Assembly: GCA_045647355.1 (NCBI GenBank)
Contig: JAZRMF010000005.1
Coordinates: forward strand, 165,763-229,762
DNA: 64,000 nucleotides
Direction of reading: 5' to 3'
Source: Candidatus Enterousia sp.
Lineage (GTDB): Bacteria > Pseudomonadota > Alphaproteobacteria > Rs-D84
Position numbers and translations under genes: made by a program. Numbering within the stretch: position 1 is the stretch's first letter; the number at the start of each line of letters is the position of its first letter. Below are positions 1,994-22,410 of the stretch, piece after piece. Below the pieces are notes generated by a model. The model was not told the origin of the DNA, searched no databases, and saw only the letters and a list, made by a program, of their open reading frames with translations.

Positions 1994-3193
1994 ATGAAAA
2001 CCAAAGAACAAATTATTGATGAAATATTGGACCGTGGCGTTATTGTTGATATTCTGCCGTCGCGGGCGGAATTTAAACAGCGGTTATTAAATGAAAAACT
2101 GCGTTTTTTCATAGGGGCCGATCCAACGAATACGTCGTTGCATCTGTCACATGCGAAAAATTTTATGCTGTTGGAAGAATTTAGAAAACTGGGGCATGAA
2201 GTATTCGTACTGTTCGGTGATTTTACCGCATGCATTGGCGACCCCAGTGACCGTAATTCTGCACGCGCCCGTCTTACACCAGAACAAGTCCATGCGTTTT
2301 CGGCGGATTGGGTTCGGCAAATATCGCCAATTATCAATTTTAATGATGCCGACAATCCGGCGCATGTCGTGTTTAATGGCGAATGGTTGAATAAACTGAC
2401 TATGCGGGATTTGATAGATCTGGCGTCAAATACCACCGTTCAACATATGTTGGAACGTGATATGTTTCAAAAACGGATGGCCGAAAACCGACCTATTCAC
2501 CTGCACGAATTCCTGTACCCAATTTTCCAAGGATTTGATTCCGTGGCATTGGATGCCGACGTTGAATTGTGCGGTGTTGACCAGACATTTAATGCGCTGA
2601 TGGGGCGAACTTTGTTAAAGAAATTGAAAAACAAAGAAAAGTTTATCGTGTGCAATAATTTGATGGAAAACCCGATAACAGGCGAATTAATGTCTAAATC
2701 ACGTGGCACAGGTGTATTTTTAAATACAGATGCGAATACTATGTTTGGGCAAATAATGGCACAGCCCGACGAAATGATACGCATTTTCTTGATAAACAAT
2801 ACACGTGTTCCGTTGGATGAAATAGACGCATTGGATATTGAAAACAATCCAATGAACGCCAAGTTATTTACCGCACAAAAAATTGTGGAAATTTTCCATG
2901 GTACGGCGGCGGCAGATTCCGCACTTGCGCATTTCAAAAACACTTTTTCAAACAAAGTGTTTCCAGAAAACGCGCCAGAATTTGCAACCGATAAAGATGA
3001 ATTGTCCGTTATGGATATTCTACAAATTGGGATGAGTGCAGAATCAAAAGGCGAACTGCGACGATTGGTTTTACAAAATGCCGTTACGATAAACGATGAA
3101 AAAGTGGTTGATATAAATCAGACCATGCGTACAAATAAAACGTTGTTTGTTCGTGTCGGACGTAAAACTTTCTTTAAGGTCGCGCGTAAATAA
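1994..3193 (+). CDS. tyrS: Tyrosyl-tRNA synthetase
   Basis: Class I aaRS motifs GADPTNTSLHLSHA (HIGH-type) and LMSKS (KMSKS), plus a C-terminal S4-like region. 399 aa. Confidence 0.8.
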   Translation: MKTKEQIIDEILDRGVIVDILPSRAEFKQRLLNEKLRFFIGADPTNTSLHLSHAKNFMLLEEFRKLGHEVFVLFGDFTACIGDPSDRNSARARLTPEQVHAFSADWVRQISPIINFNDADNPAHVVFNGEWLNKLTMRDLIDLASNTTVQHMLERDMFQKRMAENRPIHLHEFLYPIFQGFDSVALDADVELCGVDQTFNALMGRTLLKKLKNKEKFIVCNNLMENPITGELMSKSRGTGVFLNTDANTMFGQIMAQPDEMIRIFLINNTRVPLDEIDALDIENNPMNAKLFTAQKIVEIFHGTAAADSALAHFKNTFSNKVFPENAPEFATDKDELSVMDILQIGMSAESKGELRRLVLQNAVTINDEKVVDINQTMRTNKTLFVRVGRKTFFKVARK

Positions 3194-3204
3194 ACGATTA
3201 ATCA

Positions 3205-3230
3205 AAGGCCCGGTTTTTGGGCCTTTGATA
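3205..3230. terminator. Bidirectional rho-independent terminator (GGCCCGGTTTTTGGGCC) between tyrS and the convergent 3233 gene
   Basis: GC hairpin flanked by A/T runs. Confidence 0.6.
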
Positions 3231-3232
3231 TA

Positions 3233-5455
3233 TTAATGGCAATAATTTTTGACAGCCGTTTGAACAACTGGTGTCATTTGGGGAATACTATAGGTGAGTG
3301 CAAATTCATCACGATTATCGTACGTTAACGTTACACCATTATGTGCGACCGTCATACCGTTTTCTGATTGTGTGACCGTTGTGCCATCCATAAACGATAT
3401 CAGGTTACAGCCATCTTTGGTATGCGAAAATGTTGTCGATATACTTACATTTGCCGTATTTTTGAATTTGAATTCTTTTATGCGACACATTGAATCCAAT
3501 GCCACATGATGGCGACGATCTATCAAAATGCTATCGCCTTTGCCAAAAGGAATCTTGGAACCACATTCCATATATTTTGTAACGCGTAAATCTGGACCTG
3601 TATATATTTTACTTCTGGCTGTTTGCAAAACATTTACACAATCTTTGATTGTATGCCACATAGTATGTTCATCCCAATTAATAGTTTGGGTTTGCAAATT
3701 AATAATTATCCCATTTGGTAATTTTACATTGGTGACCAATCCATTATAGACACCTATTTCCATGCCGTTTGGAAATGTATATTTACAATTTTCTATGGAC
3801 GGTCTGTTTTGATACAAGATTTTATGATTTTTAAAATCCAAATGTGCAACCAGGCCATCTTTGTGCGCATATTCATAAACCCCGTCACGTAATTTCGTCA
3901 CATCCGGCCCGACCGATATCAATGTATTCATTAATACCTGGGCATCTTGCAAAAACTGTTCTTCCTTGCTTAATAACAAATTGCGCAATTCTTTGCTGAA
4001 ATAATTATGACTAAGTTTATTACGCAACACGGCATAATCTTGCCATGTCTTGGATTCTTGGGGCGAAAGCAAGCCCAATTTTTTAATATGCTGCCATGCC
4101 TCGTAACTTCTTAGGTTGCGACCACGTGTCATACAATGTCGCATTACAATACAATCACTGGCATGGAACGTATTTAAAAATCTTGAACGGTTGCCGTAAT
4201 AATCTATGCCGATATCTCTACCATGTGACAGCGGGAAATCATCAACAATGTTTATTGTTGGTATAATCTTGCGCAGATTGCGATTAAGGCTCTTGTATTT
4301 ATCTGAGGCTATTGGATGATTTAATTCCACACCTGGACACATTGCATCGGGGTTGGCATATGCCGTACGCACCCGTTGAAAGAACTTGTTATTACTTTCC
4401 GATGTATCGCGAATCAATCGGTTTGGGCATATTTTACGCATTACATGTTGCATTTGGTGCAAAACATCGATATAGGCCTTCATCCGATAAATTGGCGTTT
4501 TATCACAGATTTTCAAATACGATTCCACATACGTAGAACGAATAATTTTATTTTTGTTTGCCTTGTCCGCATCAAAAAATCCCAATTCATCCAATGTGTC
4601 TAACTGATGCCGCATAAAGTTGCGGATATTAACATAATCTTTAAAATTATCGGCCGATGGGATAAGACCGTCGGATTCCGCCTGCTTTAATGCCGCGTCA
4701 CTATCGGCGGTGTCGTATATCTCACGACAAACAACCAATAATTTTTCGGCAAAAGATCCCAACAGTTCCAATATAATATTTTCATTTGCCACCACTTGTT
4801 CGGCCGCATATATATTTAAATACATGCGATTATAACTTTTTTCTGTGGCATCTTTATTTTGCCACAGGGCGTCTACCTGGGCTATATTTATGCTAAATTC
4901 GCCCAGCATATCGTTATTATAAATAAAATCTAGTAATGGCATATTGGCATTTTCTTTATCGATATATTTCATCTTGTAAATACCATCAACAAAGAAGTCT
5001 GTTTTACCCAATTCGGATGTCGGCGTATAGATAACCGTACAACGTTCAAGGTTAAACGGCAATTGCATGTTCAACGATGTAACAGTATACGGTGGAATAG
5101 CAAAATTTTTGAAATATCCATTGTTTTCATGTTGCTTGATATGATGCAGTATGACATATGCCCTATTTTCATCTTCATATTCATCATTATTTACAAAATT
5201 CACAAAATCCTGTCTATCCTGGGGGCTCATAGGCATTATTTGCCAACTGATTTTTGGGGCATCGGGATGCATACTTTCCAATTGTGAACACGCCAAGTCT
5301 TCAATGGACGCCAATTGCATCACACTCTCATGTGCACGCGCAAGATACAAAAAGTCCTCATATATGGCGATTAATTCGTCAATATGCTGTTTCGAAATAG
5401 ATTTGTATTTTTCGTCCATAGATTTTTTTATACACCCGTACCCCGTTATTGTCAA
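3233..5455 (-). CDS. Large hypothetical protein (740 aa) with no recognisable motifs; effector-like orphan
   Basis: Long intact ORF. The start may be at the internal Met near 5419. No conserved catalytic motifs recognised by eye. Confidence 0.5.
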   Translation of the reverse strand: MTITGYGCIKKSMDEKYKSISKQHIDELIAIYEDFLYLARAHESVMQLASIEDLACSQLESMHPDAPKISWQIMPMSPQDRQDFVNFVNNDEYEDENRAYVILHHIKQHENNGYFKNFAIPPYTVTSLNMQLPFNLERCTVIYTPTSELGKTDFFVDGIYKMKYIDKENANMPLLDFIYNNDMLGEFSINIAQVDALWQNKDATEKSYNRMYLNIYAAEQVVANENIILELLGSFAEKLLVVCREIYDTADSDAALKQAESDGLIPSADNFKDYVNIRNFMRHQLDTLDELGFFDADKANKNKIIRSTYVESYLKICDKTPIYRMKAYIDVLHQMQHVMRKICPNRLIRDTSESNNKFFQRVRTAYANPDAMCPGVELNHPIASDKYKSLNRNLRKIIPTINIVDDFPLSHGRDIGIDYYGNRSRFLNTFHASDCIVMRHCMTRGRNLRSYEAWQHIKKLGLLSPQESKTWQDYAVLRNKLSHNYFSKELRNLLLSKEEQFLQDAQVLMNTLISVGPDVTKLRDGVYEYAHKDGLVAHLDFKNHKILYQNRPSIENCKYTFPNGMEIGVYNGLVTNVKLPNGIIINLQTQTINWDEHTMWHTIKDCVNVLQTARSKIYTGPDLRVTKYMECGSKIPFGKGDSILIDRRHHVALDSMCRIKEFKFKNTANVSISTTFSHTKDGCNLISFMDGTTVTQSENGMTVAHNGVTLTYDNRDEFALTYSIPQMTPVVQTAVKNYCH

Positions 5456-10244: not shown

Positions 10245-10286
10245 GGAGCGTTGGCAGAGTGGTAATGCAGCGGATTGCTAATCCGT
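10245..10286 (+). pseudogene. tRNA-Ser(GCU) 5' fragment: 5' half of a disrupted tRNA-Ser(GCU) gene (acceptor stem, D-arm, anticodon stem-loop), broken after GATTGCTAATCCGT
   Basis: GGAGCGTTGGCAGAGTGGTAATGCAGCGGATTGCTAATCCGT joined to 19348..19408 gives a complete 89-nt type II tRNA. A TATAAT -10 box lies ~15 nt upstream. Confidence 0.7.
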
Positions 10287-10617
10287 TTTTCTAGTAAAAA
10301 TTATAGCGTATTTTCAACAAGTTATCATAACCGTCATGGTATCGTGGTGCACTTTTGGTGCAGTTGTCACAATACGCCATATGACCCTATAAAACTCCAC
10401 AACAATTCATCAATATATTTCGGTTTTTGGAACCCAGTGCACCATAACTGCACCAAAAAAATTTTTTACCCTACGAAAACGCTAGTTTTCTGGGGTTTTT
10501 ATATGCTTATGCCACGGATTATGAATCTGTATTCATCAAAAAATGGGGGAGATTTGGTTATTATATATTAGAAAAGGCAAAAAATGACGACATTTGAAAA
10601 AAATTTACACCAAATGT

Positions 10618-10688
10618 CAAAAAATACGGTGAGATTTGTGTATTTATATATGGGATACACAAAAAACACGATGAGATTTGTTTATTAT
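10618..10688 (+). promoter_or_regulatory. Two direct repeats (AAAAAYACGRTGAGATTTGTKTATTWAT) immediately upstream of int; likely arm-type integrase/excisionase binding sites
   Basis: GAGATTTGTGTATTTAT at 10631 and GAGATTTGTTTATTAT at 10673. A third copy at 11853..11868 lies downstream of int. Confidence 0.45.
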
Positions 10689-10706
10689 GTATAAAGAGGT
10701 ATAAAA

Positions 10707-11810
10707 ATGGCAACAATAACAAGGAGAACAAATAAACGCGGCGAGGTTTCTTACAGAGCCCTTATTCGTGTTAAGGGGTATCCTCCGCAATCAAAGACCT
10801 TTATTCAAAGAACTAATGCACAAGAATGGGCAATGCGGACAGAATTACAAATGAAAGACGGCAAATTTGTTATGACATCAGAGGCACAACATAGAACGGT
10901 TGCTGAATTGATAGATAAATTCATCGCCGAGGCCTTGCCAGAATACAAACAAAAAGCACAGGCAAATTATTTGAATACCTGGAAAGGCCTTATCGGCCAA
11001 TACGCATTGATTGCTGTGAAACGGGATTTAATAAATGACGCATTGAACAAAATACGAAAAATGCCAACACCACATGGTGGCGAAAAAACGCCTGCCACCC
11101 TGAACCGTTATATCTCTGCTATGTCTGTCGTATTCACATATGCTTATAAGCAACTGGATTGGATAGAACGCAATCCTTTTGATAAAGTGCAAAAGTATAA
11201 AGAACCCAGGGGACGCGTTCGGTATTTAACTGACGATGAAAGGCACAAATTACTGCATGAGTGTATGTTATCACAAAATTCTTTATTATACCCCGCTGTT
11301 TTGCTTGCTATAACCACAGGTGCCCGCAAAGAGGAAATAATGTCATTGCGGTGGGCGGATATTGACTTGCACGGTGAAACCAAAAGAGCAATTTTACAAA
11401 AAACAAAAAATGGTGAACGGCGGTCTATTTCAATAGTGGAACCTGCATTGACGGAAATGTTGAAATTGGAACAAAAACGCGGAACAAACGAATATGTTTT
11501 TGCCCCACAACGCGAAAGCAAAGTAAAACACCATGCCAACATTACACATGCTTGGTATAACGCATTACGCAGGGCTGGCATAACAAATTTCAGATTCCAC
11601 GACTTACGCCATACTGCGGCCTCGTATTTAGCAATGCATGGGGCAACGAACAGAGAAATGGCCGAATTCTTGGGGCACAAGACCCCACAAATGACCATGC
11701 GTTATGCACATTTGTCTGACCAACACCAATTCTCACTTGCAGAATCCATAATGTCACACCAAGTGTTTGCACAAACACCAAATCAAGGAGGTGAAACAAT
11801 AAAAATTTAA
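10707..11810 (+). CDS. int: Tyrosine-type site-specific recombinase (phage integrase family)
   Basis: C-terminal catalytic region HDLRHTAASYLAMHG...MTMRYAHL (R..H..R..Y). 367 aa. Confidence 0.9.
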   Translation: MATITRRTNKRGEVSYRALIRVKGYPPQSKTFIQRTNAQEWAMRTELQMKDGKFVMTSEAQHRTVAELIDKFIAEALPEYKQKAQANYLNTWKGLIGQYALIAVKRDLINDALNKIRKMPTPHGGEKTPATLNRYISAMSVVFTYAYKQLDWIERNPFDKVQKYKEPRGRVRYLTDDERHKLLHECMLSQNSLLYPAVLLAITTGARKEEIMSLRWADIDLHGETKRAILQKTKNGERRSISIVEPALTEMLKLEQKRGTNEYVFAPQRESKVKHHANITHAWYNALRRAGITNFRFHDLRHTAASYLAMHGATNREMAEFLGHKTPQMTMRYAHLSDQHQFSLAESIMSHQVFAQTPNQGGETIKI

Positions 11811-11927
11811 AAAAATTTCAAAAAAATTGCCAAAACAGGCCAAAAACGACATGAGATTTGTTTATTATATAATGGATAGGCAAAAAGATGACTGCTTGTC
11901 CCGTAAAATTGAATCAAGGAGTTAAAA

Positions 11928-12146
11928 ATGAATGAATTGAAATCGCCAAATCTTATGACAGTCAGTCAGTTTTGCAAAGCAAATCCTGCCTTTTCAATGG
12001 GTAGTATTCGGAACATATTGTTTTATGAGAATGCCAACGGCCTCAAAGCATGTGGTGCCACAAAACGCCTTGGACGCAAAATCTTAATTGATTGCGACAA
12101 ATTCTTTGCGTGGTTGGACACAAATCCATCAATCACAGGCAAATAA
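11928..12146 (+). CDS. AlpA/excisionase-like small HTH DNA-binding protein (72 aa)
   Basis: MTVSQFCKANPAFSMGSIRNILF...CDKFFAWL resembles the AlpA/Xis HTH_17 family. Sits directly downstream of int. Confidence 0.5.
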   Translation: MNELKSPNLMTVSQFCKANPAFSMGSIRNILFYENANGLKACGATKRLGRKILIDCDKFFAWLDTNPSITGK

Positions 12147-12156
12147 GGAGGTCAAA

Positions 12157-13326
12157 ATGTCACAAGAGAAAGAATTTACTCGCCCAATAACAAAACCATG
12201 TGACGCCCCTGTCAATGGGGACGAATTGTTGACCGAATTGGAAAATACATTTAAGCGTTATGTGGTTTTGCCAGACCACGCCTCAACGGCTTTGGCATTA
12301 TGGACGGTGGCAACATATTTACCCTACACCACAGAGGGTAAAGTCAAATATGCACCACGCATAATGATTATTTCGCCCACTCGCGGTTGTGGCAAATCTT
12401 TGTTATTGTCCGTATTGGAATATCTGTGTGAATGTCCGCTTATGACAGGCAATATTTCATACGCCTCGCTTTACAGGATAATAGAGGCCGACAAGCCGCT
12501 TATTCCTTTGATTGATGAATGTGATGGTTATGTTAAGGGTAATACGGATATGGCCAATATTTTAAACAATGGTTTTACGCGTGGTTATCCTGTTATAAGG
12601 TGTCGTGATAGCAAAAATTTGAAACCAAAGCGTTTTGATTGTTTTACACCTGTTGCCGTGGCTGGAATAAACAAATCCACATTTGAACCAACAACCATTG
12701 ACCGTTCTATCATTATCCAAATGCGGAGGAAACGCCCAAATGAAAACATTGAAAAAATACCAAGAATGGATATTTTTGGTGAGTTGCGTCAACAATGTGC
12801 CAGGTTCATAGACGACTTTAAAAATGCGGATATGCCCTTTATTGAAAAAGCCAATGGATTAAACAATCGCAGATTTGATGTCTGGGAAAATTTGTTGAGT
12901 TTGGCAAAATTCGCGTCAGACGATTGGTATGAAAAAGCACTAACAGTGGCTGAACACTTATCAAAAGAAAATGACGATGATGATTCTACGGATTTAGGTA
13001 TTCAATTACTATCAAATATCCGTGAAATTGTGACTGAAAAGTGGATTCCATCAGATGACCTGTGTAAAAAATTAAACGAAAATGAGGAATGGCCTTGGAA
13101 AGAAATGGGTTATCGTGAACAACCATTGACCCCCACAAAATTAGCACGACTGTTAAGACCTTTCAAAATTAAACCACGAAACGGACGGGTGGATATATCA
13201 ACGGTCAAAAAAGGATATTTAAAATCAGATTTTGAATCCGCCTGGGCTAATTACCTTGCAACATTACCAAAAACACCCGCTACACCGCTACAAAGCGTTG
13301 ATTTTGACCCGATATTGAACCCATAA
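12157..13326 (+). CDS. Mobile-element P-loop NTPase of the primase-associated (DUF3631-like) type
   Basis: Walker-A-like ISPTRGCGKSLLLS. Start taken at the ATG after AGGAGG (12157) rather than the ORF-track start 12088. Confidence 0.45.
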   Translation: MSQEKEFTRPITKPCDAPVNGDELLTELENTFKRYVVLPDHASTALALWTVATYLPYTTEGKVKYAPRIMIISPTRGCGKSLLLSVLEYLCECPLMTGNISYASLYRIIEADKPLIPLIDECDGYVKGNTDMANILNNGFTRGYPVIRCRDSKNLKPKRFDCFTPVAVAGINKSTFEPTTIDRSIIIQMRRKRPNENIEKIPRMDIFGELRQQCARFIDDFKNADMPFIEKANGLNNRRFDVWENLLSLAKFASDDWYEKALTVAEHLSKENDDDDSTDLGIQLLSNIREIVTEKWIPSDDLCKKLNENEEWPWKEMGYREQPLTPTKLARLLRPFKIKPRNGRVDISTVKKGYLKSDFESAWANYLATLPKTPATPLQSVDFDPILNP

Positions 13327-13403
13327 AACGCTACACAAAAAACCACGACAATCAAACAGAAATTGATAGTTGTAGCGTTGTAGCGGATAAAAAAGGATAC
13401 GAC

Positions 13404-13796
13404 ATGGCAAATGAACAGAATTTGATTCCAATACGAACCGAGAGCCAAGCAAGAGCACTCGGTCAACGCGGCGGCATTGCAAGCGGTATAGCCCGCCGAG
13501 AACGCAAAAGATTGCGTGAAATTGCTGTGACAATGGTTAATACACCTATGCAAATAGACAATGGCCCTTACAGTATCAACAAATGGTTTGAAAAGTTTAA
13601 TATTTCCGAACCAACAATGATTGATTTCATTATGGCACGCCTGATTGATAGTGCGTGTTCTGGTGATATCCAGGCAACAAAATTATTATTTGCTGTTATT
13701 GGGGATACACCATCGCAAATATCGTTTCCAAACGGCACATTCACACAACAAAAAATAAAGGTATCTTATGAGGCAAAACGACAAAATTTTGAATAA
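13404..13796 (+). CDS. Hypothetical island protein (130 aa)
   Basis: Intact ORF. Confidence 0.35.
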   Translation: MANEQNLIPIRTESQARALGQRGGIASGIARRERKRLREIAVTMVNTPMQIDNGPYSINKWFEKFNISEPTMIDFIMARLIDSACSGDIQATKLLFAVIGDTPSQISFPNGTFTQQKIKVSYEAKRQNFE

Positions 13797-13832
13797 AAAA
13801 AATCCCAGTATTCTGGGAAGTTTTTAGAAAAC

Positions 13833-13922
13833 TGGCGGAGCGTGTAGGATTTGAACCTACGCACGACTATAACGCCGTGACGGATTAGCAATCCGCTCCA
13901 TTAACCACTCTGGCAACGCTCC
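13833..13922 (-). tRNA. tRNA-Ser(GCU): Complete tRNA-Ser(GCU), type II with long variable arm, carried inside the island
   Basis: Reverse complement GGAGCGTTGCCAGAGTGGTTAATGGAGCGGATTGCTAATCCGTCACGGCGTTATAGTCGTGCGTAGGTTCGAATCCTACACGCTCCGCCA. Acceptor 7 bp, anticodon GCT, variable stem CACG/CGTG, T-arm GTAGG/CCTAC, encoded CCA. Confidence 0.85.
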
Positions 13923-14016
13923 ATCGTTCGCCTGCGGATTATAGCAGACAATAAAAGAAAAAATCAAGTTAAAAAGAAAAAACTTTGTTAAAAACAACAA
14001 TATAAGGAGAACAAAC

Positions 14017-14328
14017 ATGACAAACGAACAAGAACAACACATTATTGACGCCATAGATGAGGCAAAAAACGCAATTTATAATAACGGTTCTGACACATAT
14101 GATTACAGAGATTTATTGCAAGGTATTAACAACGAATTACGCGACATAGGACACGGCAATATGGGGTTTGGTTGTCTGGCCGAAATTCATTCTGATTTAC
14201 GAAAACTTAACAAAAACCAAATTGTTGCGGCAATGATTACCGCCACGAAACAAACTTCCCTGGAATCATTGAAAAAGTTTTCGGATTTGGCAGATAAATA
14301 TTTGGATTATGAGGCCAAAAAATCGTAA
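14017..14328 (+). CDS. Hypothetical island protein (103 aa)
   Basis: Intact ORF with an RBS-like AAGGAGA upstream. Confidence 0.4.
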   Translation: MTNEQEQHIIDAIDEAKNAIYNNGSDTYDYRDLLQGINNELRDIGHGNMGFGCLAEIHSDLRKLNKNQIVAAMITATKQTSLESLKKFSDLADKYLDYEAKKS

Positions 14329-14636
14329 TCAAAATATTACAACTTATTTTTTCCGTATCCCTCTTTACTTTTTTCAAATAACCGTATAAAATAAACACTG
14401 AATCCAAGAGATTGGGTTCAGGGCTGTGGTAGCCCATGTTGTTCGGTGCGAAAGCATCGTAATCTGATGTTATCGGTGTTTTCCGCACCGTTATCACCCT
14501 GACTTTATGGTCGGGGAGTCGTTGGCTATAAAATAGGAGCAATCCGAAAGCCACGAAATCAATAACAACATGATTACCAACTCCCTGACCGCTCTCTTTT
14601 GGAGCGGTTCATTTTTACACGCAAAGGGTGAGTTGA

Positions 14637-17600
14637 ATGTCAAAACAGATGATTATTTATTGGTATACAACAAAGAAACAATTCAATGAAATTGAACCTG
14701 GGCAAACTTGGTGTATTGGTGAAGTTGACCCAAATGCCAGTAAGTATTTTGGCATGTCCACCGCCAAAGCGGCCGAAACCCGTGTGCGTGAGGAATTGGG
14801 GAAAGTCAAAGACGGTGCACGCATAACCTTTGATGATATTGATGATTTAGAATACGATTCCTTTGAATTTCCAAATCCAAACAACAAAGAAAAAGGTATG
14901 GATAAAGATATCCATGCAATGTTAAAAACCATTAACTGTAAACAGATTGCCACCGAATGGTTTAACACTACACCCGATGAAATAAAACGCGTTATAAGTC
15001 ATTTGATAAACGGGACACCACTTGGAACAAAATACGAATTACGCAAAAGACAAGGTGACGCAATCAAAGTATTCAAAAAAGCATTGGACAACAAACAAAA
15101 AAAGTTTGGTTTGTTTGCCATGCCACGATTTGGGAAAACAATATGTTCATTTGAAATGATGAATTTGTTGTTTGAAAGATTTCCAGACAAAAAATACATA
15201 TTCTTTATTTCCGCAAAATTGGACGCCGAACAGGCATTACGAGAGGATTATTACAAATTTGACCAAAGTTGTAATTTCAAACTATGTTTATATGATTCTG
15301 ATACCAAAGTCACATTAGAGGATTTACAAAAAGATAAATACCTATTCTTTGCAAGCAAACAATGGTTTGACGGTAAAAGTTTGGACGAAATAAGAAAACG
15401 ATTCCCGTGTGTAAATCACGATGATTGTGCGGCCGTATTTTTTGACGAGGCACATTTTGCCCGTATGACGGATAATGCCCAAGGCACAATACGCTTATTG
15501 AATCCACACATGCAAATTGACATTACGGGCACACCGTTCAGATTAAAAACAAATGAAGATTACGATGACAACAATTCGTATGTTTATAGCGTTTTGGACG
15601 AATATGACGATTACGAAAATTCAGATAACAAAGAGGCATTCCGATTAAAGAATCCTGAAATGGTTTATATCACACCGAAAAATGAATTCTTTAAAACAGA
15701 CAGTTCTTTTGGTGAATTCTTTGACAGTGACGGGTGCCAAGACGCCATCAAAGAATGGGTTGAAAAAACATTTTATGGTGGGAAATTTAACATAGATGGA
15801 AAATCATTGCCAATTACCAACGCCATTGTTGTTTTACCACCACGCCGTAAATATTGTGATTTATTTGCCAGTGCCGTTAATGAATTAGTGCGTGCAAATA
15901 AATACGCAATTAAATGCACCAAAACCACAACCAAAGATAATGATGACAGAGATTACATTCCAGACAACGAACAAAGATTCAAAGAATGGAATCGTATGTG
16001 TAAAAACGAACCGAATTGTTTCCATTTGTTGGTGACGATTGGCAAAGGATTACAGGCCGTTTCATTTCCTGATTGTCACGCGGTTATTATGTTGAATGAT
16101 ATGACATCACCAGAACAATATATCCAGGCAGCGTTCCGTAGTAAAACGCCAAACGGTATCAAAAAAGAGGCATATGTTGTTGATTATAACAAAGGTCGCA
16201 CATTACAGATAATTGATACATTCATCAAAAATCATTTGTTGGTCAAGGCATGTGACGCAAATTATAAAACAGAATACCAGCGTGCTTTGTCGCGTATCCA
16301 AATTCGTGACCACACACTTGTTCGCCAAGAATATACATTTGAGGAAATATTCCAAACATTCATATCAAATTGGAACATTGAAAGAATTACCGATTCCATA
16401 GATTTTGATATAGAACGATTGGTTAACAAGATAGATTTAAGCCAGGTTAAATTATCAGATTTACAAAAACCGCACCAATTAACATTACAGTTAACCGAAC
16501 GCGGTGATGATTATGAACAAACAGACCAAGATGACCAGGGCACTGGCACAGATGATGGTGGTGATGGTGGCAAACATTTGGCACCTGATTGGTTGGAAAA
16601 ACACATTGAAAAATTGAAATCAGACCTGGTTAGGTATGGATATATTCCATTCGGTGGCAAAGAATCAGATAGATTGAAAGATATAAACCCAGACGAAATT
16701 CAACGCCGTGTATTACCTGTTGGCAAAAATGACGATGAACAAGAGGTTTGGTCATATCTTGGTGGTGATGGTGATTGGGACGACATATACATTGATGAAT
16801 CTGGTTTATCACCATCAACCGTTCGTTGGAAATATGTTATAAACAACAGGTTTGTAAATGTCACTGGTGAGGCCTCGCACGGGGACGGTGCTGTTGATAT
16901 CAAAAAAGCAAAAGCATTTATAAACGCAATCATTCGTTATTTACCTGCGTATTTCTTGGTTTCGGGTGTTCCAAATGGTTTTGACGATTTCAAAGACCGT
17001 TTTGGTCGTCAAACAATTTCCGAAAAGCACAAAGAGCGTCAGTTGTTCCGTGAGTTTATGGGAATGGGTATAGATTACCGTTATATCATTGAAATCTTGA
17101 AAGTATGTGACGCAGGTAGTCGCGAACAAATAATCGCATATTGTGCCGATAAAGTTGCCAAATGTTATCAAGACGGCAAATTGGTCCCAGAAAAGGTTTT
17201 GGAATTGCTTTGGGTTTATAAAAAAGACGGCAGTCGCCCCGTGCCAAAGCAACTGGCCGACATAATGCGTAAAGACAAAAACTATGACATTGTGGTTTGT
17301 GGTGGTTATTGGTTAACCGACAACAAAACAAAAATGTATATCACCGACAGTTTTGGTGAATCTGAAATCATGAAAAAATTACGCCCCAACTGCACGGTTA
17401 TTTATTCCAACGATATTTTACAAACACTTGAAAAACAAAAAGAGTCCATCATGAAATTTAAAGCATTCATAATGAATCCACCCTATGGCAATCTGCATTT
17501 GCCGATATTGAAAGAGATGATAGAAATGATTGTTGAAAATGGTGGACACGGTGTCAGTTTACAACCAGTTCGTTGGTTGCAAGACCCATTGGTTAAATAT

Positions 17601-18287
17601 AAAAAATCCACCGATTTTAGCAGGTATAACGAGGTGTTAAAAAATAGTTTAGCAGACATACAAATATATTCCTCAACAGAAGTTGGCAGAATGTTTGAGG
17701 CAGTATTTACAATGGATTTAGGTATTTATGAATTTAGCAAAGGCAGCACCTACAACTTGGACAAATTGTATAAAGACCATTTGTTAGAAAAAATCGTAGA
17801 TACGATATTGTCCACAGATAAACAACATACCACAATTCACGCCAAAATGGAAAAAGATAAACGAATGGGGATAAGGGTAAGAGTTTGTGATATACAAGAC
17901 AACGGCAGAGGTGGAAATGGTGGACGAAAAAGCCACATAGGTTTATACAGGACACAAAGAATAGAGAATGGACTAGTTGACGGGAAAGATTGGACAGATT
18001 GTGTTCAAAAGAATCAATGTAGTAGACAAAGCGGTGCCCCAATCCCGTATAGTATAGAATTTGATTCTATCAATGAGGCAGATAATTTTATCAAATCAAC
18101 AAAGACCATATTTTGGCAGTATTTAATGTTAAAAATGCATAGGGATATAAATGTTCCAAATCAATGGTTGCCGTTTATGAATGATTATTCTGAACCATGG
18201 ACAGATGAACGATTCTATGCATATTTTGATATAACACCAGATGAACAAAAGATTATTGAGGAAACAGTCAAAGACGCGAAAAAGTAA
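14637..18287 (+). CDS. Large fusion protein (1216 aa): N-terminal ~115-aa domain of unknown function, SF2 DEAH-box helicase (Res-like), and the catalytic (motif IV NPPY) half of an N6-adenine DNA methyltransferase
   Basis: Motif I FAMPRFGKT, motif II FFDEAHFA, motif III ITGTPFR, motif VI QAAFRSKT, and methyltransferase motif IV KFKAFIMNPPYGN near residue 955. A Q-motif-like ELRKRQGDAI precedes motif I. Confidence 0.75.
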   Translation: MSKQMIIYWYTTKKQFNEIEPGQTWCIGEVDPNASKYFGMSTAKAAETRVREELGKVKDGARITFDDIDDLEYDSFEFPNPNNKEKGMDKDIHAMLKTINCKQIATEWFNTTPDEIKRVISHLINGTPLGTKYELRKRQGDAIKVFKKALDNKQKKFGLFAMPRFGKTICSFEMMNLLFERFPDKKYIFFISAKLDAEQALREDYYKFDQSCNFKLCLYDSDTKVTLEDLQKDKYLFFASKQWFDGKSLDEIRKRFPCVNHDDCAAVFFDEAHFARMTDNAQGTIRLLNPHMQIDITGTPFRLKTNEDYDDNNSYVYSVLDEYDDYENSDNKEAFRLKNPEMVYITPKNEFFKTDSSFGEFFDSDGCQDAIKEWVEKTFYGGKFNIDGKSLPITNAIVVLPPRRKYCDLFASAVNELVRANKYAIKCTKTTTKDNDDRDYIPDNEQRFKEWNRMCKNEPNCFHLLVTIGKGLQAVSFPDCHAVIMLNDMTSPEQYIQAAFRSKTPNGIKKEAYVVDYNKGRTLQIIDTFIKNHLLVKACDANYKTEYQRALSRIQIRDHTLVRQEYTFEEIFQTFISNWNIERITDSIDFDIERLVNKIDLSQVKLSDLQKPHQLTLQLTERGDDYEQTDQDDQGTGTDDGGDGGKHLAPDWLEKHIEKLKSDLVRYGYIPFGGKESDRLKDINPDEIQRRVLPVGKNDDEQEVWSYLGGDGDWDDIYIDESGLSPSTVRWKYVINNRFVNVTGEASHGDGAVDIKKAKAFINAIIRYLPAYFLVSGVPNGFDDFKDRFGRQTISEKHKERQLFREFMGMGIDYRYIIEILKVCDAGSREQIIAYCADKVAKCYQDGKLVPEKVLELLWVYKKDGSRPVPKQLADIMRKDKNYDIVVCGGYWLTDNKTKMYITDSFGESEIMKKLRPNCTVIYSNDILQTLEKQKESIMKFKAFIMNPPYGNLHLPILKEMIEMIVENGGHGVSLQPVRWLQDPLVKYKKSTDFSRYNEVLKNSLADIQIYSSTEVGRMFEAVFTMDLGIYEFSKGSTYNLDKLYKDHLLEKIVDTILSTDKQHTTIHAKMEKDKRMGIRVRVCDIQDNGRGGNGGRKSHIGLYRTQRIENGLVDGKDWTDCVQKNQCSRQSGAPIPYSIEFDSINEADNFIKSTKTIFWQYLMLKMHRDINVPNQWLPFMNDYSEPWTDERFYAYFDITPDEQKIIEETVKDAKK

Positions 18288-18877
18288 TGACAAGACAGAA
18301 AACAGATTATGATTGCAATAACAATGCTTGCGATTTAAACCTGACAAAACAGGAATGTAAATCGGCTGGTGCTTTTCATACGCCAGAAAAATTGGCTATT
18401 GAGATGGCAAAAAAATTGTTTCCAAAATATATTACAACATGTCGTAAATGTAGAACCAAGGCGGGTATAATTAAAAAATTTGGACAAGAGGGAATTGATT
18501 TTCTAAAAGATTTCAGGTTAATTGACCCATGTTGTGGCACTGGTAATTTGTTGGCCGCCGCAATGAATGTCTATAAATGGATTGACGAGGAGGACCTTTA
18601 CGGTGTTGATATAGACCCGCGGGCTATTGATTTTTGTATGCGTAAATTTCCACATGGACATTTCCAGGTTGGTGATTGCCTGTTAGAGGATTTAACCGAT
18701 GATAAATTTTGGGAACACCCATCTGATGGTTTGTTTGGTGCCTATAAAGCACAAAAACTGGCCGAGGCCACACGCATAATCAAAGATAAAGCCGTCAAAA
18801 ACAGAAAAGAATTATCTGCGGATTTGTTAAAACAAAAACAAATGCAAATGACACAGAATCCACGGGGTGCTAAATAA
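18287..18877 (+). CDS. AdoMet-binding half of an amino-methyltransferase (motifs X, I, II, III) as a separate 196-aa ORF overlapping the upstream stop (TAATG, -1 frame)
   Basis: GAFHTPEKLAIEMAKKL (motif X) and LIDPCCGTGNLL (motif I, DPxCGxG). No NPPY in this ORF. Confidence 0.7.
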   Translation: MTRQKTDYDCNNNACDLNLTKQECKSAGAFHTPEKLAIEMAKKLFPKYITTCRKCRTKAGIIKKFGQEGIDFLKDFRLIDPCCGTGNLLAAAMNVYKWIDEEDLYGVDIDPRAIDFCMRKFPHGHFQVGDCLLEDLTDDKFWEHPSDGLFGAYKAQKLAEATRIIKDKAVKNRKELSADLLKQKQMQMTQNPRGAK

Positions 18878-19347
18878 TGGGTGTATTGATTGTTATTCTT
18901 TGCGTATGGATTGGAATAAAGTTGATTGTTCCCCTGGGATACTTGTTGCTTTGTTGGTTGCTTGGTTTAAATGATAATAATCCAGACGATACCCAGGGGG
19001 AATAAAGTGTATATTCTTATGGGATTTTACTATTTGGTCATCATATGTCTTATCATTGGCATATTCAAAGCATTATTTGGTCGGTAAAATGGTGCACTGA
19101 ATTTTGTGCATAGTCGTTTTCGTTATATTCGTCAGTTTCAATTTTCGCCAGGAATCCAAGACCTCTACCTATATTCATCGGACACGGTTCCCCCCCTCTC
19201 GTGGTGCAATTATGGTGCAGTTCATACCAAAAAACACCACATTTGGCAACAATTCACAAAAATAGCGATTTTTACCAAACCCGCAGAAATCTCTTGCTTT
19301 TTGTTGTAATCTGTTGTAGAATATTATTGAAAAAACAGGGGGTAATA

Positions 19348-19408
19348 GATTGCTAATCCGTGACCGTGTTATAGCGGTCCATAGGTTCGAGTCCTATACG
19401 CTCCGCCA
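19348..19408 (+). pseudogene. tRNA-Ser(GCU) 3' fragment: 3' half of the disrupted tRNA-Ser(GCU) (anticodon loop, variable arm, T-arm, acceptor, CCA)
   Basis: GATTGCTAATCCGTGACCGTGTTATAGCGGTCCATAGGTTCGAGTCCTATACGCTCCGCCA. The acceptor 3' strand ACGCTCC pairs with the 5' fragment at 10245. Confidence 0.7.
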
Positions 19409-20673: not shown

Positions 20674-22410
20674 CTATTTATCTTTTGGTGATGCGCTATC
20701 GATTTTGCGGGTCATTTTCAGGAACTTTTCTGCACGCAATTCCGGTAATTTTTCCGGGTCGGTCTTTTGCAATAATTTGATTTGTTCACTGACCGCGTTA
20801 GCCAAACTTTCCATCGTCGTTTGCCAATCGGTATGTGCACCACCCGCAGGTTCCGGAATTATTTTATCAATCACACGCATTTCCATCATATCGGTGGCCG
20901 TCAATTTCATCGCCGCCGCCGCAGTAGCCTTGAATTTATTATCTTTCCACAAAATACTTGCGCAAGATTCCGGCGCAATAACCGAATATATCGCATTTTC
21001 CAACATTAACACACGGTCGCCTGTTCCGATTGCGATTGCACCACCGGAACCACCCTCGCCAACATTAACAGCGATGTACGGTGTCTTGATAGAAAGCCCT
21101 GTTTGGATTGACGATGCCACAGCTTCGGATTGACCACGTTCTTCGGCGGCCGAACCCGCAAATGCACCCGCCGTATCAAACAATGATATAACCGGCAAAT
21201 TAAATCTTTCCGCCAAACGCATCAACCTTTGCGCCTTGCGATAGCCTTCGGGATTTGGCATGCCAAAGCGGTGCAGTTGACGTGTTTCAATCGTGCGACC
21301 CTTTTCTTGACCCAAAATCACCGCAGGGAACCCGTTCCAAAAACCAATACCGCCACACATTGCCGCGTCTTCACCAAACAATCTGTCGCCGGCAAGGTAT
21401 GTCCAATCCGATACAATACCATTGATATAATCCAAGAAATGCGGGCGATTTTCATTTCGCGCCAATAAAACTTTGTCATACGCAGCATTTTCACCCATGC
21501 CACGTGCCTTTTTGGAAGAATCTGAATCCGCCGGAGTTTGGGTTGTTATCTTTTCCACGGTACGTGATTGGTGCGTTAAAACAGCCAATATTTTTTCCAG
21601 ACGTGATTTCAGCTCGACACGTGGAACAACCATATCCACCATACCATGTTCATACAAATAATCCGCCGTTTGGAAATTTGCGGGTAATTTTTCGCGAATA
21701 TTTTGTTCAATAACGCGACGCCCCGCGAAACCAATACGCGCACCAGATTCTGCAATATTAATATCACCCAACATTGCAAAAGATGCCGTCACCCCGCCAT
21801 ACGTTGGATCGGTTAATAACACAATATACGGAATCTTGGCCGCATGCAATTTATTTACGGCGACGGTTGTACGCGCCATCTGCATCAGGGATAATATATT
21901 TTCTTGCATACGGGCGCCACCACTGCACGCCACCATAATCAAGGGTTGATGCATCTGAATTGCGTGTTCGGCACTGGCCACGATACCCTCACCGGCAACA
22001 CGTCCCATTGACCCCATCATAAATTCGCCGTTCAAAATACATATCGTTGTTGGGATACCACCAATGCGACCGTCCGCCGTTGTAACCGCGTCATTGTATC
22101 CGGTATCACTGCGCCCTTCGGCCAAACGTTCTGAATATGGGATTCTATCTACAAAATTCAGTGGATCATCCGGTAACGTTGGTAATTGAATTTTTTCCCA
22201 CGTGCGGTCATCGAACAGCAAATCAAATCTTTGCTTTGGATTCATAATAAATGCCCGGCCACAACGCGGACAGATATAATGATTATCCTTGTAATCTTTG
22301 TAATACACCAATTTATCGCAAGATTCGCATTTTATCCACATCAACCGACGAACGCGGTCGTATTTTTCACGATTCTTGTTTTTAATTCCGGATTTTTTAC
22401 CGAATAACAT
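20674..22410 (-). CDS. accDA: Acetyl-CoA carboxylase carboxyltransferase: fused beta (AccD, N-terminal zinc finger) and alpha (AccA) subunits in one 578-aa polypeptide
   Basis: N-terminal CESCDKLVY...CPRCGRAF zinc ribbon with an AccD core. The C-terminal half has AccA motifs FGMPNPEGYRKAQRLM, AEERGQSEAVA and GEGGSGGAIAIG. Confidence 0.85.
   Translation of the reverse strand: MLFGKKSGIKNKNREKYDRVRRLMWIKCESCDKLVYYKDYKDNHYICPRCGRAFIMNPKQRFDLLFDDRTWEKIQLPTLPDDPLNFVDRIPYSERLAEGRSDTGYNDAVTTADGRIGGIPTTICILNGEFMMGSMGRVAGEGIVASAEHAIQMHQPLIMVACSGGARMQENILSLMQMARTTVAVNKLHAAKIPYIVLLTDPTYGGVTASFAMLGDINIAESGARIGFAGRRVIEQNIREKLPANFQTADYLYEHGMVDMVVPRVELKSRLEKILAVLTHQSRTVEKITTQTPADSDSSKKARGMGENAAYDKVLLARNENRPHFLDYINGIVSDWTYLAGDRLFGEDAAMCGGIGFWNGFPAVILGQEKGRTIETRQLHRFGMPNPEGYRKAQRLMRLAERFNLPVISLFDTAGAFAGSAAEERGQSEAVASSIQTGLSIKTPYIAVNVGEGGSGGAIAIGTGDRVLMLENAIYSVIAPESCASILWKDNKFKATAAAAMKLTATDMMEMRVIDKIIPEPAGGAHTDWQTTMESLANAVSEQIKLLQKTDPEKLPELRAEKFLKMTRKIDSASPKDK

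Follow-up and report, generated by a model that had tools for sequence, protein, structure and literature searches.

Type ISP restriction-modification enzymes such as LlaGI/LlaBIII are single gene products without an accessory subunit, in which an N-terminal Mrr-family PD-(D/E)xK nuclease, a superfamily 2 (SF2) ATPase, a coupler or linker, a gamma-class N6-adenine methylase and a recognition domain follow each other in one chain. Uncharacterised relatives with helicase domains and GIY-YIG nucleases have been mentioned by the authors of Type ISP work (PMC3553950). Here a locus of this general kind is described from a 64,000-nucleotide stretch of Candidatus Enterousia sp. DNA (contig JAZRMF010000005.1, positions 165,763 to 229,762; hereafter the window). 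The only long open reading frames (ORFs) on the plus strand of this locus are ORF1 and ORF2, and Type ISP is the nearest described class to ORF1 in function and architecture. Our preferred reading, to which we assign a probability of roughly 60%, is that the two genes encode a two-subunit, ATP-dependent restriction-modification enzyme akin to Type ISP, with a nuclease of GIY-YIG type and a separate half-methylase that binds S-adenosylmethionine (AdoMet), and that they are carried as cargo on a tRNA-Ser island. The recognition domain would read an asymmetric site, and ORF2 would supply or gate AdoMet at the NPPY site, leading to N6-adenine methylation of the host DNA. At an unmethylated site the motor would hydrolyse ATP and translocate, and the N-terminal nuclease would then cut foreign DNA. 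ORF1 and ORF2 are presumed to associate physically and to confer a defence phenotype.

ORF1 follows the Type ISP single-chain order of nuclease, SF2 ATPase, linker, gamma-class methylase and recognition domain and, as with those enzymes, the module is located on mobile DNA. The first-pass annotation had described the arrangement as unlike that of Type III, Type ISP and DarB-like enzymes; the domain order is that of Type ISP. The differences from Type ISP are a nuclease-like domain of T5orf172/GIY-YIG type, an atypical methylase motif I and the conservation of ORF2 as a second gene. Sequence and profile searches of the PDB with ORF1 and alignment A1 found nothing, leaving ORF1 with no detectable sequence similarity to Type ISP enzymes. 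By its nuclease family and its accessory gene the module falls outside Type ISP sensu stricto, and it belongs neither to Type III, from which motif order and nuclease set it apart, nor to any PADLOC system. The overall kind of module is known, while this variant and the split-methylase family to which it is related below are undescribed.

The two overlapping ORFs of the first-pass annotation, joined by TAATG in the -1 frame, were recovered with the same coordinates and junction, and every motif it quoted was found in the translations, namely helicase motifs I, II (DEAH), III and VI and the NPPY motif in ORF1, and motifs X and I in ORF2. The helicase and methylase content was also borne out by Pfam matches to ResIII (ORF1) and N6_Mtase (ORF2). 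ResIII matched amino acids (aa) 132-302 of ORF1 with an E-value of 2.5e-13, and the helicase motifs were FAMPRFGKT (motif I, aa 160-168), FFDEAHF (motif II, DEAH at 270-273), TGTP (motif III, 297-300) and YIQAAFRSKTP (motif VI, 495-505). The catalytic FIMNPPYG (aa 944-951, NPPY at 947-950) is located about 440 aa beyond helicase motif VI. Thirty-two full-length ORF1 homologues with 55-96% identity, nearly all of 1198-1236 aa, were found in metagenome-assembled genomes (MAGs) of gut Alphaproteobacteria, for example Candidatus Enterousia and 'uncultured Rickettsiales'. The quoted motifs were invariant across these homologues and are therefore not chance occurrences. ORF2 was located directly behind ORF1 at every locus with a complete ORF1 homologue, and each of the 12 complete loci kept this two-gene arrangement.

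The N-terminus of ORF1 gave two Pfam matches below cutoff at aa 84-122, MUG113 (18.2 bits, cutoff 22.3) and T5orf172 (16.3 bits, cutoff 20), and an AlphaFold model of aa 1-135 (predicted local distance difference test, pLDDT, 86.5) showed a GIY-YIG-like beta-beta-alpha-beta-alpha topology. An hhalign comparison of the N-terminal alignment with two single T5orf172 proteins was uninformative (probability about 1%). Homology gave stronger evidence. A tblastn search of plasmids identified proteins that align from ORF1 aa 42-89 on through the helicase, including WP_263082682.1 of Lysinibacillus plasmid pFN9B (1326 aa), which has Pfam T5orf172 (14-120, at cutoff), ResIII and Eco57I methylase domains in the same order. 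BLASTP aligned ORF1 aa 70-526 with this protein (E 2e-20, 26% identity), and the segment DKDIHAMLK...ATEWFN of ORF1 aligned with DYDVHSVLK...GREWFE inside the T5orf172 domain. Residues Y8, Y10, G28, R49, E53, D91, E107 and W108 were invariant among ORF1 homologues and H93 was present in at least 90%. The N-terminus is assigned with moderate confidence to a T5orf172/GIY-YIG-like domain and would act as the nuclease. The weak GIY-YIG resemblance that had been noted earlier was thus moderately upheld by the sub-threshold Pfam matches, the model topology and the pFN9B homology. The accompanying statement that no nuclease was seen held for PD-(D/E)xK families, none of which matched ORF1 or ORF2 (Pfam, PADLOC, NCBIfam), and is probably wrong with regard to the N-terminus. 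A 145-aa protein from the representative library (P0150) was 50% identical to ORF1 aa 3-123, stood alone and carried an unrelated His-rich tail. It represents an ORF1 homologue cut short or else a nuclease-like domain that occurs independently.

The methylase region of ORF1 (aa 640-1216) was modelled with AlphaFold2 at a mean pLDDT of 78, and about 90 in the methylase core, as a complete seven-stranded class I methylase fold with strands beta1 IVV, beta2 MYITD, beta3 VIYS, beta4 AFIM-NPPY, beta5 GVSLQP and beta6-7, followed by the variable domain. The best Foldseek match to this model was the type IIG enzyme BpuSI (490 columns). The segment before NPPY, hereafter the internal N-half (aa 871-938), contained an X-like SRPVPKQLADIM before beta1, an I-like DIVVCGGYW, a II-like MYITD and a III-like VIYSND. 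Since beta1-beta3 and the X-like segment precede NPPY in the same chain, the model predicts a gamma-order methylase (X, I-III, IV NPPY-VIII, recognition domain). The beta-class permutation of the first-pass annotation is not supported, and the motifs X and I-III that followed NPPY in it are those of a separate protein. A canonical AdoMet motif I was not found within the ORF1 chain, the canonical DPCCGTGNLL being that of ORF2, and the internal N-half had no D/E-P-x-x-G-x-G, only a CGGY loop, and no long alpha-A helix. It was nonetheless highly conserved (CGGY, LTD, ITD) among homologues. The internal N-half matched neither the ORF2 hidden Markov model (HMM) nor the N-half HMM. Since an hhalign comparison of the ORF2 family with this segment reached no significance, ORF2 is not its recent duplicate.

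The alignment of ORF1 homologues was strongly conserved up to about aa 985, where it divided into at least four unrelated variants that rejoined at a C-terminal helix. These variants were swapped among homologues that are otherwise 60-95% identical, a pattern characteristic of an exchangeable target-recognition domain.

ORF2 contained FHTPEKLA (aa 30-37), DPCCGTGNLL (80-89), YGVDID and FQVGDCL, and NPPY was absent. Its match to Pfam N6_Mtase (22.4 bits, cutoff 20.4) was confined to the AdoMet-binding part, profile positions 17-93 of 311, and its matches in PADLOC-DB v2 were limited to the AdoMet loops of generic methylase models. All forty-six ORF2 homologues were 117-199 aa long and none was a full-length methylase. 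These features suggest that ORF2 is the canonical AdoMet-binding half (motifs X and I-III) of the same methylase lineage. It might supply AdoMet at NPPY in trans, swap with the tethered internal N-half or serve as an AdoMet-binding regulator, and it could accordingly replace, complement or regulate the atypical N-half of ORF1. A role as specificity factor was rejected as ORF2 did not co-vary with the type of recognition domain, and loci L013 and L015 carried the same ORF2 with different recognition domains (loci are numbered with the prefix L). At L001 and L018 ORF2 was 88% identical to the window copy while ORF1 was only 58-67% identical, with nonsynonymous rates (dN) of 0.06-0.07 for ORF2 and 0.25-0.32 for ORF1, which points either to ORF2 evolving more slowly or to module parts being shuffled by recombination.

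A search of 1.84 billion representative proteins with ORF1 aa 1-1200 returned 778 matches, and most of the best 150 covered aa 939-1200 only, hereafter the C-half. Three classes of C-half matches were distinguished. The first comprised stand-alone proteins of 255-300 aa with the N-terminus M-K/N-F-x-x-I-I-M/G-N-P-P-Y, starting exactly at M939 of ORF1 and strand beta-4, the second proteins of 330-420 aa with an N-extension, and the third helicase fusions of 1030-1680 aa. A profile of the C-half (alignment A6, 13 members) recovered at least 945 clusters with E below 1e-10, mostly stand-alone proteins of 256-290 aa that open at strand beta-4, almost all without a Pfam match and called 'hypothetical protein' where the source names them. 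The family occurs in phages, plasmids and metagenomes. The window copy (aa 939-1214) matched the resulting NPPY_TRD HMM with an E-value of 1e-110 and was 35-46% identical to A6 members.

Twenty-five viral and 80 metagenomic loci were fetched, giving 91 distinct loci, and were scanned with HMMs from the window's family for an N-half partner, taken as a small same-strand ORF2-type gene within 1.5 kb. Such a neighbour was present at all seven helicase-fused loci. Among N-extended loci it was present at 17 of 38 (11 of the 22 with sufficient flank), and among C-half-only loci at 20 of 46 (6 of the 12 with sufficient flank). The N-extended proteins without a nearby N-half mostly had no canonical motif I, and neither support nor refute a split methylase. 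The small N-half proteins were independently labelled by Pfam at N6_Mtase positions of about 19-116 of 311, and independent gene calls combined with this model gave the same layout of N-half and C-half in L129 and L130; one phage N-half matched the C-terminal part of PF01555. The N-half proteins stop just past motif III (e.g. ...NFVCSDIFEWD) and the C-halves open at beta-4, and the two are therefore complementary halves, cut where strands 3-2-1 and 4-5-7-6 of the Rossmann fold meet. In L038 and L054 the two halves were joined in gamma order, giving a methylase of ordinary appearance. ORF1 and ORF2 share this layout, with a C-half homologous to the stand-alone beta-4-start proteins and an adjacent same-strand N-half. 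The three partner proteins of L130 were among the closest non-fused relatives of the ORF1 C-half (42% identity), and ORF2 was 38% identical (E 7e-33) to the L130 N-half, located after three C-half-only genes, the two sharing the signature FP.GHFQVG.CL.DDL.DD.FW. ORF2-like genes were also located 5' of T5orf172-helicase-methylase systems on Lysinibacillus and Mycobacteroides plasmids, and a 250-kb viral contig (L040) encoded a 1173-aa fused protein followed by a 146-aa N-half. The N-half protein thus appears to be a conserved component of these systems in Alphaproteobacteria, Bacillota, Actinomycetota and phages. The proposal of the first-pass annotation that AdoMet-binding and catalytic parts reside on different polypeptides is well supported for the family, where N-half genes stand beside beta-4-start C-halves, and plausible for ORF1 and ORF2; a simple complementation of ORF1 is contradicted by its own beta1-beta3 segment and by the wider company that ORF2-like genes keep, described below.

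Two to four tandem C-half paralogues with different recognition domains were present at 36 of the 91 loci. The arrays included an N-half followed by three C-halves (L025) or four (L092) and three C-halves followed by an N-half (L130). Cassettes of phages and metagenomes in which the tandem C-half genes overlap and one N-half is present were observed in L025 (2002-4805), L092 (3221-6505), L130 (3425-6192), L077 and L118, and would represent a combinatorial multi-specificity methylase array. In L130 an IS605-type OrfB/TnpB (Cas12f-like) element (2099-3325) was located between the ResIII helicase gene and the C-half array of this related system. In a distant relative on a 334-kb JGI contig (L003, 6378-10453) the parts were arranged differently. 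A 1007-aa protein combined a GIY-like N-terminus with a helicase, NPPF and a recognition domain, and behind it came a T5orf172 protein of 208 aa and an N-half of 150 aa, each encoded separately; the surroundings, with replication genes of DnaB and IstB-like type and numerous small ORFs, had a phage-like look. Only precedents among C5-cytosine methylases and engineered splits were found in the literature searched for a split N6-adenine methylase family, and neither an N6-adenine methylase split at beta3|beta4 nor the C-half family was found described.

Several observations weigh against ORF1 and ORF2 forming a two-subunit restriction enzyme. The AlphaFold2 model gives ORF1 a complete Rossmann sheet, and completion of the fold needs no ORF2. 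No PADLOC-DB v2 system fits ORF1, the only match being PD-T4-4_B (E 0.018 over 60 aa). Approximately half of the C-half loci with enough flank had no N-half within 1.5 kb. ORF2-like genes also adjoin a canonical in-line N-half protein (L038/L119) and a complete Eco57I methylase (Mycobacteroides pMchErm55), which argues against simple complementation.

A broader reading, which we hold only tentatively, is that the pair is a helicase- and nuclease-fused member of a large undescribed family of naturally split N6-adenine methylases. The Rossmann fold would be divided at the beta3|beta4 switch point into a small AdoMet-binding subunit and an interchangeable catalytic-plus-recognition subunit, and one AdoMet-binding half could serve two to four tandem recognition paralogues, giving multi-specificity in phages. 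In the motor-linked versions the degenerate, helicase-tethered pseudo-N-half (ORF1 871-938, and the helicase C-terminus in L004) may compete with the true half for the C-half, and the recognition module would thereby be partitioned between modification and restriction complexes. In the relative L004 the helicase gene stops right after the pseudo-N-half and the next gene opens with MNFDCIIGNPPYGG, a layout suggesting that the pseudo-N-half can itself dock a separate C-half.

ORF1 might instead suffice on its own as a Type ISP-like enzyme, binding AdoMet through its atypical N-half (CGGY loop, D904), with ORF2 an accessory regulator or sensor rather than a piece of the active site, an explanation that we consider unlikely but not negligible. 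ORF2 might then gate the nuclease or motor by AdoMet level, or stimulate the methylase in the manner of catalytically dead methylase-like partners. The invariance of C888, G889, G890, Y891 and D895 and the presence of D904 in at least 90% of homologues are consistent with this, as are the persistence of ORF2-like genes beside the canonical N-half and the complete Eco57I methylase mentioned above and the lack of detectable homology between ORF2 and the ORF1 N-half. MANTIS provides a recent precedent for accessory-dependent methylases (bioRxiv 10.64898/2026.09.23.753747). However, the closest non-fused C-half relatives adjoin ORF2-type N-halves (L130, L129, L025, L041), and a C-half alone cannot form a Rossmann fold. 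Motif I of ORF1 is non-canonical, and the N-extensions of its relatives are mostly degenerate (VVND, FRTG, GVAF) and mostly without a glycine loop.

It is improbable that the module does not restrict at all and is a translocating or orphan methylase, guarding the mobile element or the host DNA in an anti-restriction or epigenetic role, with an N-terminal domain that binds DNA without cutting. No nuclease family was above its curated threshold in ORF1, which would fit this, the T5orf172 domain has been called largely uncharacterised, with roles in DNA binding predicted for it (PMC9973331), and the C-half and N-half family is abundant on viral contigs, including those of jumbo-phage size, where multi-specificity arrays typical of phage self-protection are often seen. 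Nevertheless, the catalytic-type residues of the nuclease-like domain are invariant, an intact DEAH motor fused in the Type ISP order has the look of a restriction enzyme, the homologous modules have defence-gene neighbours, and the Prokaryotic Genome Annotation Pipeline (PGAP) calls homologous T5orf172-helicase proteins 'GIY-YIG nuclease family protein'.

A single gene, broken by a frameshift or joined by a programmed -1 slip at G_AAA_AAG before the stop, can effectively be dismissed: the window and L010 do read AAA AAG TAA TG, where a -1 slip enters the ORF2 frame, but no fused homologue was found, the ORF1 and ORF2 homologues keep separate lengths, and the junction is variable, with three loci in the other frame. 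The complete ORF1 loci compared were the window, L001, L002, L008-L010, L013-L015 and L018-L021. In the window the junction reads ...GCG AAA AAG TAA TGA..., the A of the ORF2 ATG being an A inside the ORF1 TAA. TAATG (frame offset 2) occurred in nine loci, and offset 1 in three, where the genes overlap by 26 or 8 nt or are separated by 4 nt; across loci the overlap ranged from -40 to +4 nt. The junction sequence varied (AAG AAA TAA, AGA AAA TAA, AAA GGA TAA and others) without a conserved slippery heptamer, and ORF2 kept its own ATG-ACN start at all compared loci. Ratios of nonsynonymous to synonymous rates (dN/dS) of 0.06-0.09 for ORF1 and 0.04-0.12 for ORF2 point to purifying selection on both. 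The frameshift-inactivated gene raised in the first-pass annotation was thus rejected on the conserved two-ORF layout and lengths, low dN/dS and diverse junctions, and neither ORF had the single-ORF homologues that would have indicated a pseudogene. Programmed frameshifting at AAG-TAA-TGA, also suggested there, was rejected as very unlikely given two frame relations and no conserved heptamer. The simplest reading is that ORF2 is translated separately, mostly via stop-start translational coupling. In one MAG (Horse_feces300, L011 8001-10811) the ORF1 homologue was broken at 936 aa and ORF2 was intact. The stand-alone 278-aa protein P0081 may be part of this locus, as its contig of 60,710 nt equals in length the one with L011. 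The break could stem from a frameshift or an assembly error, or the gene may be naturally split at beta3|beta4.

Other described systems resemble the module in part. The protein of the Bacillota plasmid pFN9B (Lysinibacillus capsici) is a true ORF1 homologue with the same domain order, but its methylase is a clear Eco57I-family domain (E 1e-27), unlike that of ORF1, and its small overlapping gene, which matches the N-half HMM (E 2e-12), lies 5' where ORF2 lies downstream. Such T5orf172-ResIII-Eco57I plasmid proteins carry generic annotation only, and to our knowledge no experimental characterisation of these single-chain proteins has been reported. The conserved defence-island cluster dnmA(yeeA)-yeeB-yeeC of Bacillus subtilis and relatives encodes an MmeI-like N6-adenine methylase together with an SF2 helicase and a protein of T5orf172 type (PMC9973331). 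The three functions of ORF1 are linked there too, but each has its own gene, the methylase is complete, and a half-methylase subunit has not been reported. Type IIG/IIL enzymes (BpuSI, MmeI) and M.TaqI/M.BseCI have no motor domain, a PD-(D/E)xK nuclease or none, and a methylase in one polypeptide with canonical motif I. M.AquI is a naturally heterodimeric C5-cytosine methylase. M.EcoHK31I is likewise a natural two-polypeptide C5-cytosine methylase from overlapping or adjacent genes (PMC2836561). In these heterodimeric enzymes motif IX or IX-X is on the small chain, whereas here an N6-adenine methylase is split at beta3|beta4, with AdoMet binding in one half and catalysis plus recognition in the other. 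Type III enzymes share a ResIII-type helicase in Res with ORF1, and the likeness to Mod is one of gene order only (IV...recognition domain, then X-I-III), as the ORF1 fold is gamma-order, X-I-III is a separate protein, helicase and methylase form one chain, and the nuclease-like domain is N-terminal and not PD-(D/E)xK; PGAP names one N-half 'type III restriction endonuclease subunit M'. A tblastn search of 50,697 GenBank phage records with ORF1 gave no match at E 1e-5, and DarB-like phage methylase-helicase fusions accordingly showed no homology to it.

The coordinates of the module and the island that carries it are listed below. The island is about 9.07 kb (~10287-19347) and is bounded by 14-nt direct repeats in the tRNA anticodon loop; joining its flanks produced a tRNA-Ser(GCT) recognised by ARAGORN.

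Features of the ORF1/ORF2 module and its island (window coordinates)
Feature	Position	Strand	Remarks
Left attachment (att) core copy, 14 nt, GATTGCTAATCCGT	10273..10286	+	End of 5' half of split host tRNA-Ser(GCT) (10245-10286)
Tyrosine integrase on island	10707-11810		
DUF3631 protein on island	12088-13326		
Intact island tRNA-Ser(GCT)	13833-13922	-	83% similar to host copy, inverted
ORF1	14637..18287	+	ATG start, 1216 aa; one chain with nuclease-like domain, helicase, methylase and recognition domain
ORF1 aa 1-125, T5orf172/GIY-YIG-like domain, putative nuclease	14637..15011	+	
ORF1 aa 126-560, SF2 helicase-like ATPase (ResIII type, DEAH)	15012..16316	+	Pfam ResIII; PHROG 16 DNA helicase; invariant motifs I, II, III, VI
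ORF1 aa 561-870, conserved coupler-like linker	16317..17246	+	Acidic low-complexity stretch at about aa 625-645
ORF1 aa 871-938, internal atypical methylase N-half	17247..17450	+	AlphaFold2 beta1-beta3 packed on beta4, pLDDT about 90
ORF1 aa 939-985, methylase C-half catalytic core (MKFKAFIMNPPYG...GVSLQPVRW; motifs IV-VI)	17451..17591	+	Invariant in alignment A1; start point of hundreds of stand-alone homologues
ORF1 aa 986-1216, hypervariable target-recognition domain	17592..18284	+	At least four swapped variants; conserved C-terminal helix PWTDERFY..F.IT..EQKIIE
ORF2	18287..18877	+	ATG start, 196 aa; half-methylase, motifs X, I, II, III, without NPPY; variable Lys-rich tail
Right att core copy, GATTGCTAATCCGT	19348..19361	+	Start of 3' half of host tRNA-Ser(GCT) (to ~19409)

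The island splits the host tRNA gene, restores it at neither junction and carries its own inverted complete copy, as is also the case in L002. Homologous modules elsewhere adjoin other integrases, OLD-family TOPRIM ATPases, AAA_13, AAA_21 with RloB, DUF4238 and HNH genes, a mobile defence-island setting. Just outside the island, a 578-aa ORF (20674-22410, minus strand) was an accD-accA fusion with an acetyl-CoA carboxylase zinc ribbon, a carboxyltransferase beta-type region and an ACCA alpha-type domain.

A structured RNA about 215 nt long was predicted between a 103-aa ORF and ORF1 (14396-14611, plus strand; minimum free energy -93 kcal/mol, z -7.9), with a promoter-like site just 5' and a terminator-like hairpin and T-run at its end, 25 nt before ORF1. 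It was kept with compensatory pair changes 5' of ORF1 homologues in L002, L048, L009, L013/L015 and L017 and was absent at other ORF1 loci, and a second copy in L017 (206-393) was located 5' of an autotransporter-like gene. A riboswitch was rejected since there was no Rfam match and the second copy precedes this unrelated gene; the element is probably a lineage-specific 5' leader or small RNA. Directly 3' of ORF2 (18877-19087) are two short hydrophobic ORFs, MGVLIVILCVWIGIKLIVPLGYLLLCWLLGLNDNNPDDTQGE and ...VYILMGFYYLVIICLIIGIFKALFGR, the first stop-start coupled to ORF2. The pair was identical in L002 and L048 and missing from more distant loci, and could represent small membrane peptides or chance ORFs.

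If ORF2-type proteins supply the AdoMet half in trans, they would represent a new way to build DNA methylases, with a shared cofactor module and plug-in catalytic and recognition cassettes. This would account for hundreds of 'hypothetical' proteins of 260-290 aa in phages and bacteria that are without a match to any Pfam model, allow better assignment of methylomes to genes in metagenomes and offer a natural scaffold for split, programmable adenine methylases. Should ORF2 be only a regulator, it would still be a new accessory component in a poorly studied lineage that spans Alphaproteobacteria, Bacillota, Actinomycetota and phages. The restriction-modification field would gain a lineage akin to Type ISP in which the nuclease is of GIY-YIG type and a further subunit is present, and the module raises the testable idea that one recognition domain may be shared by modification and restriction.

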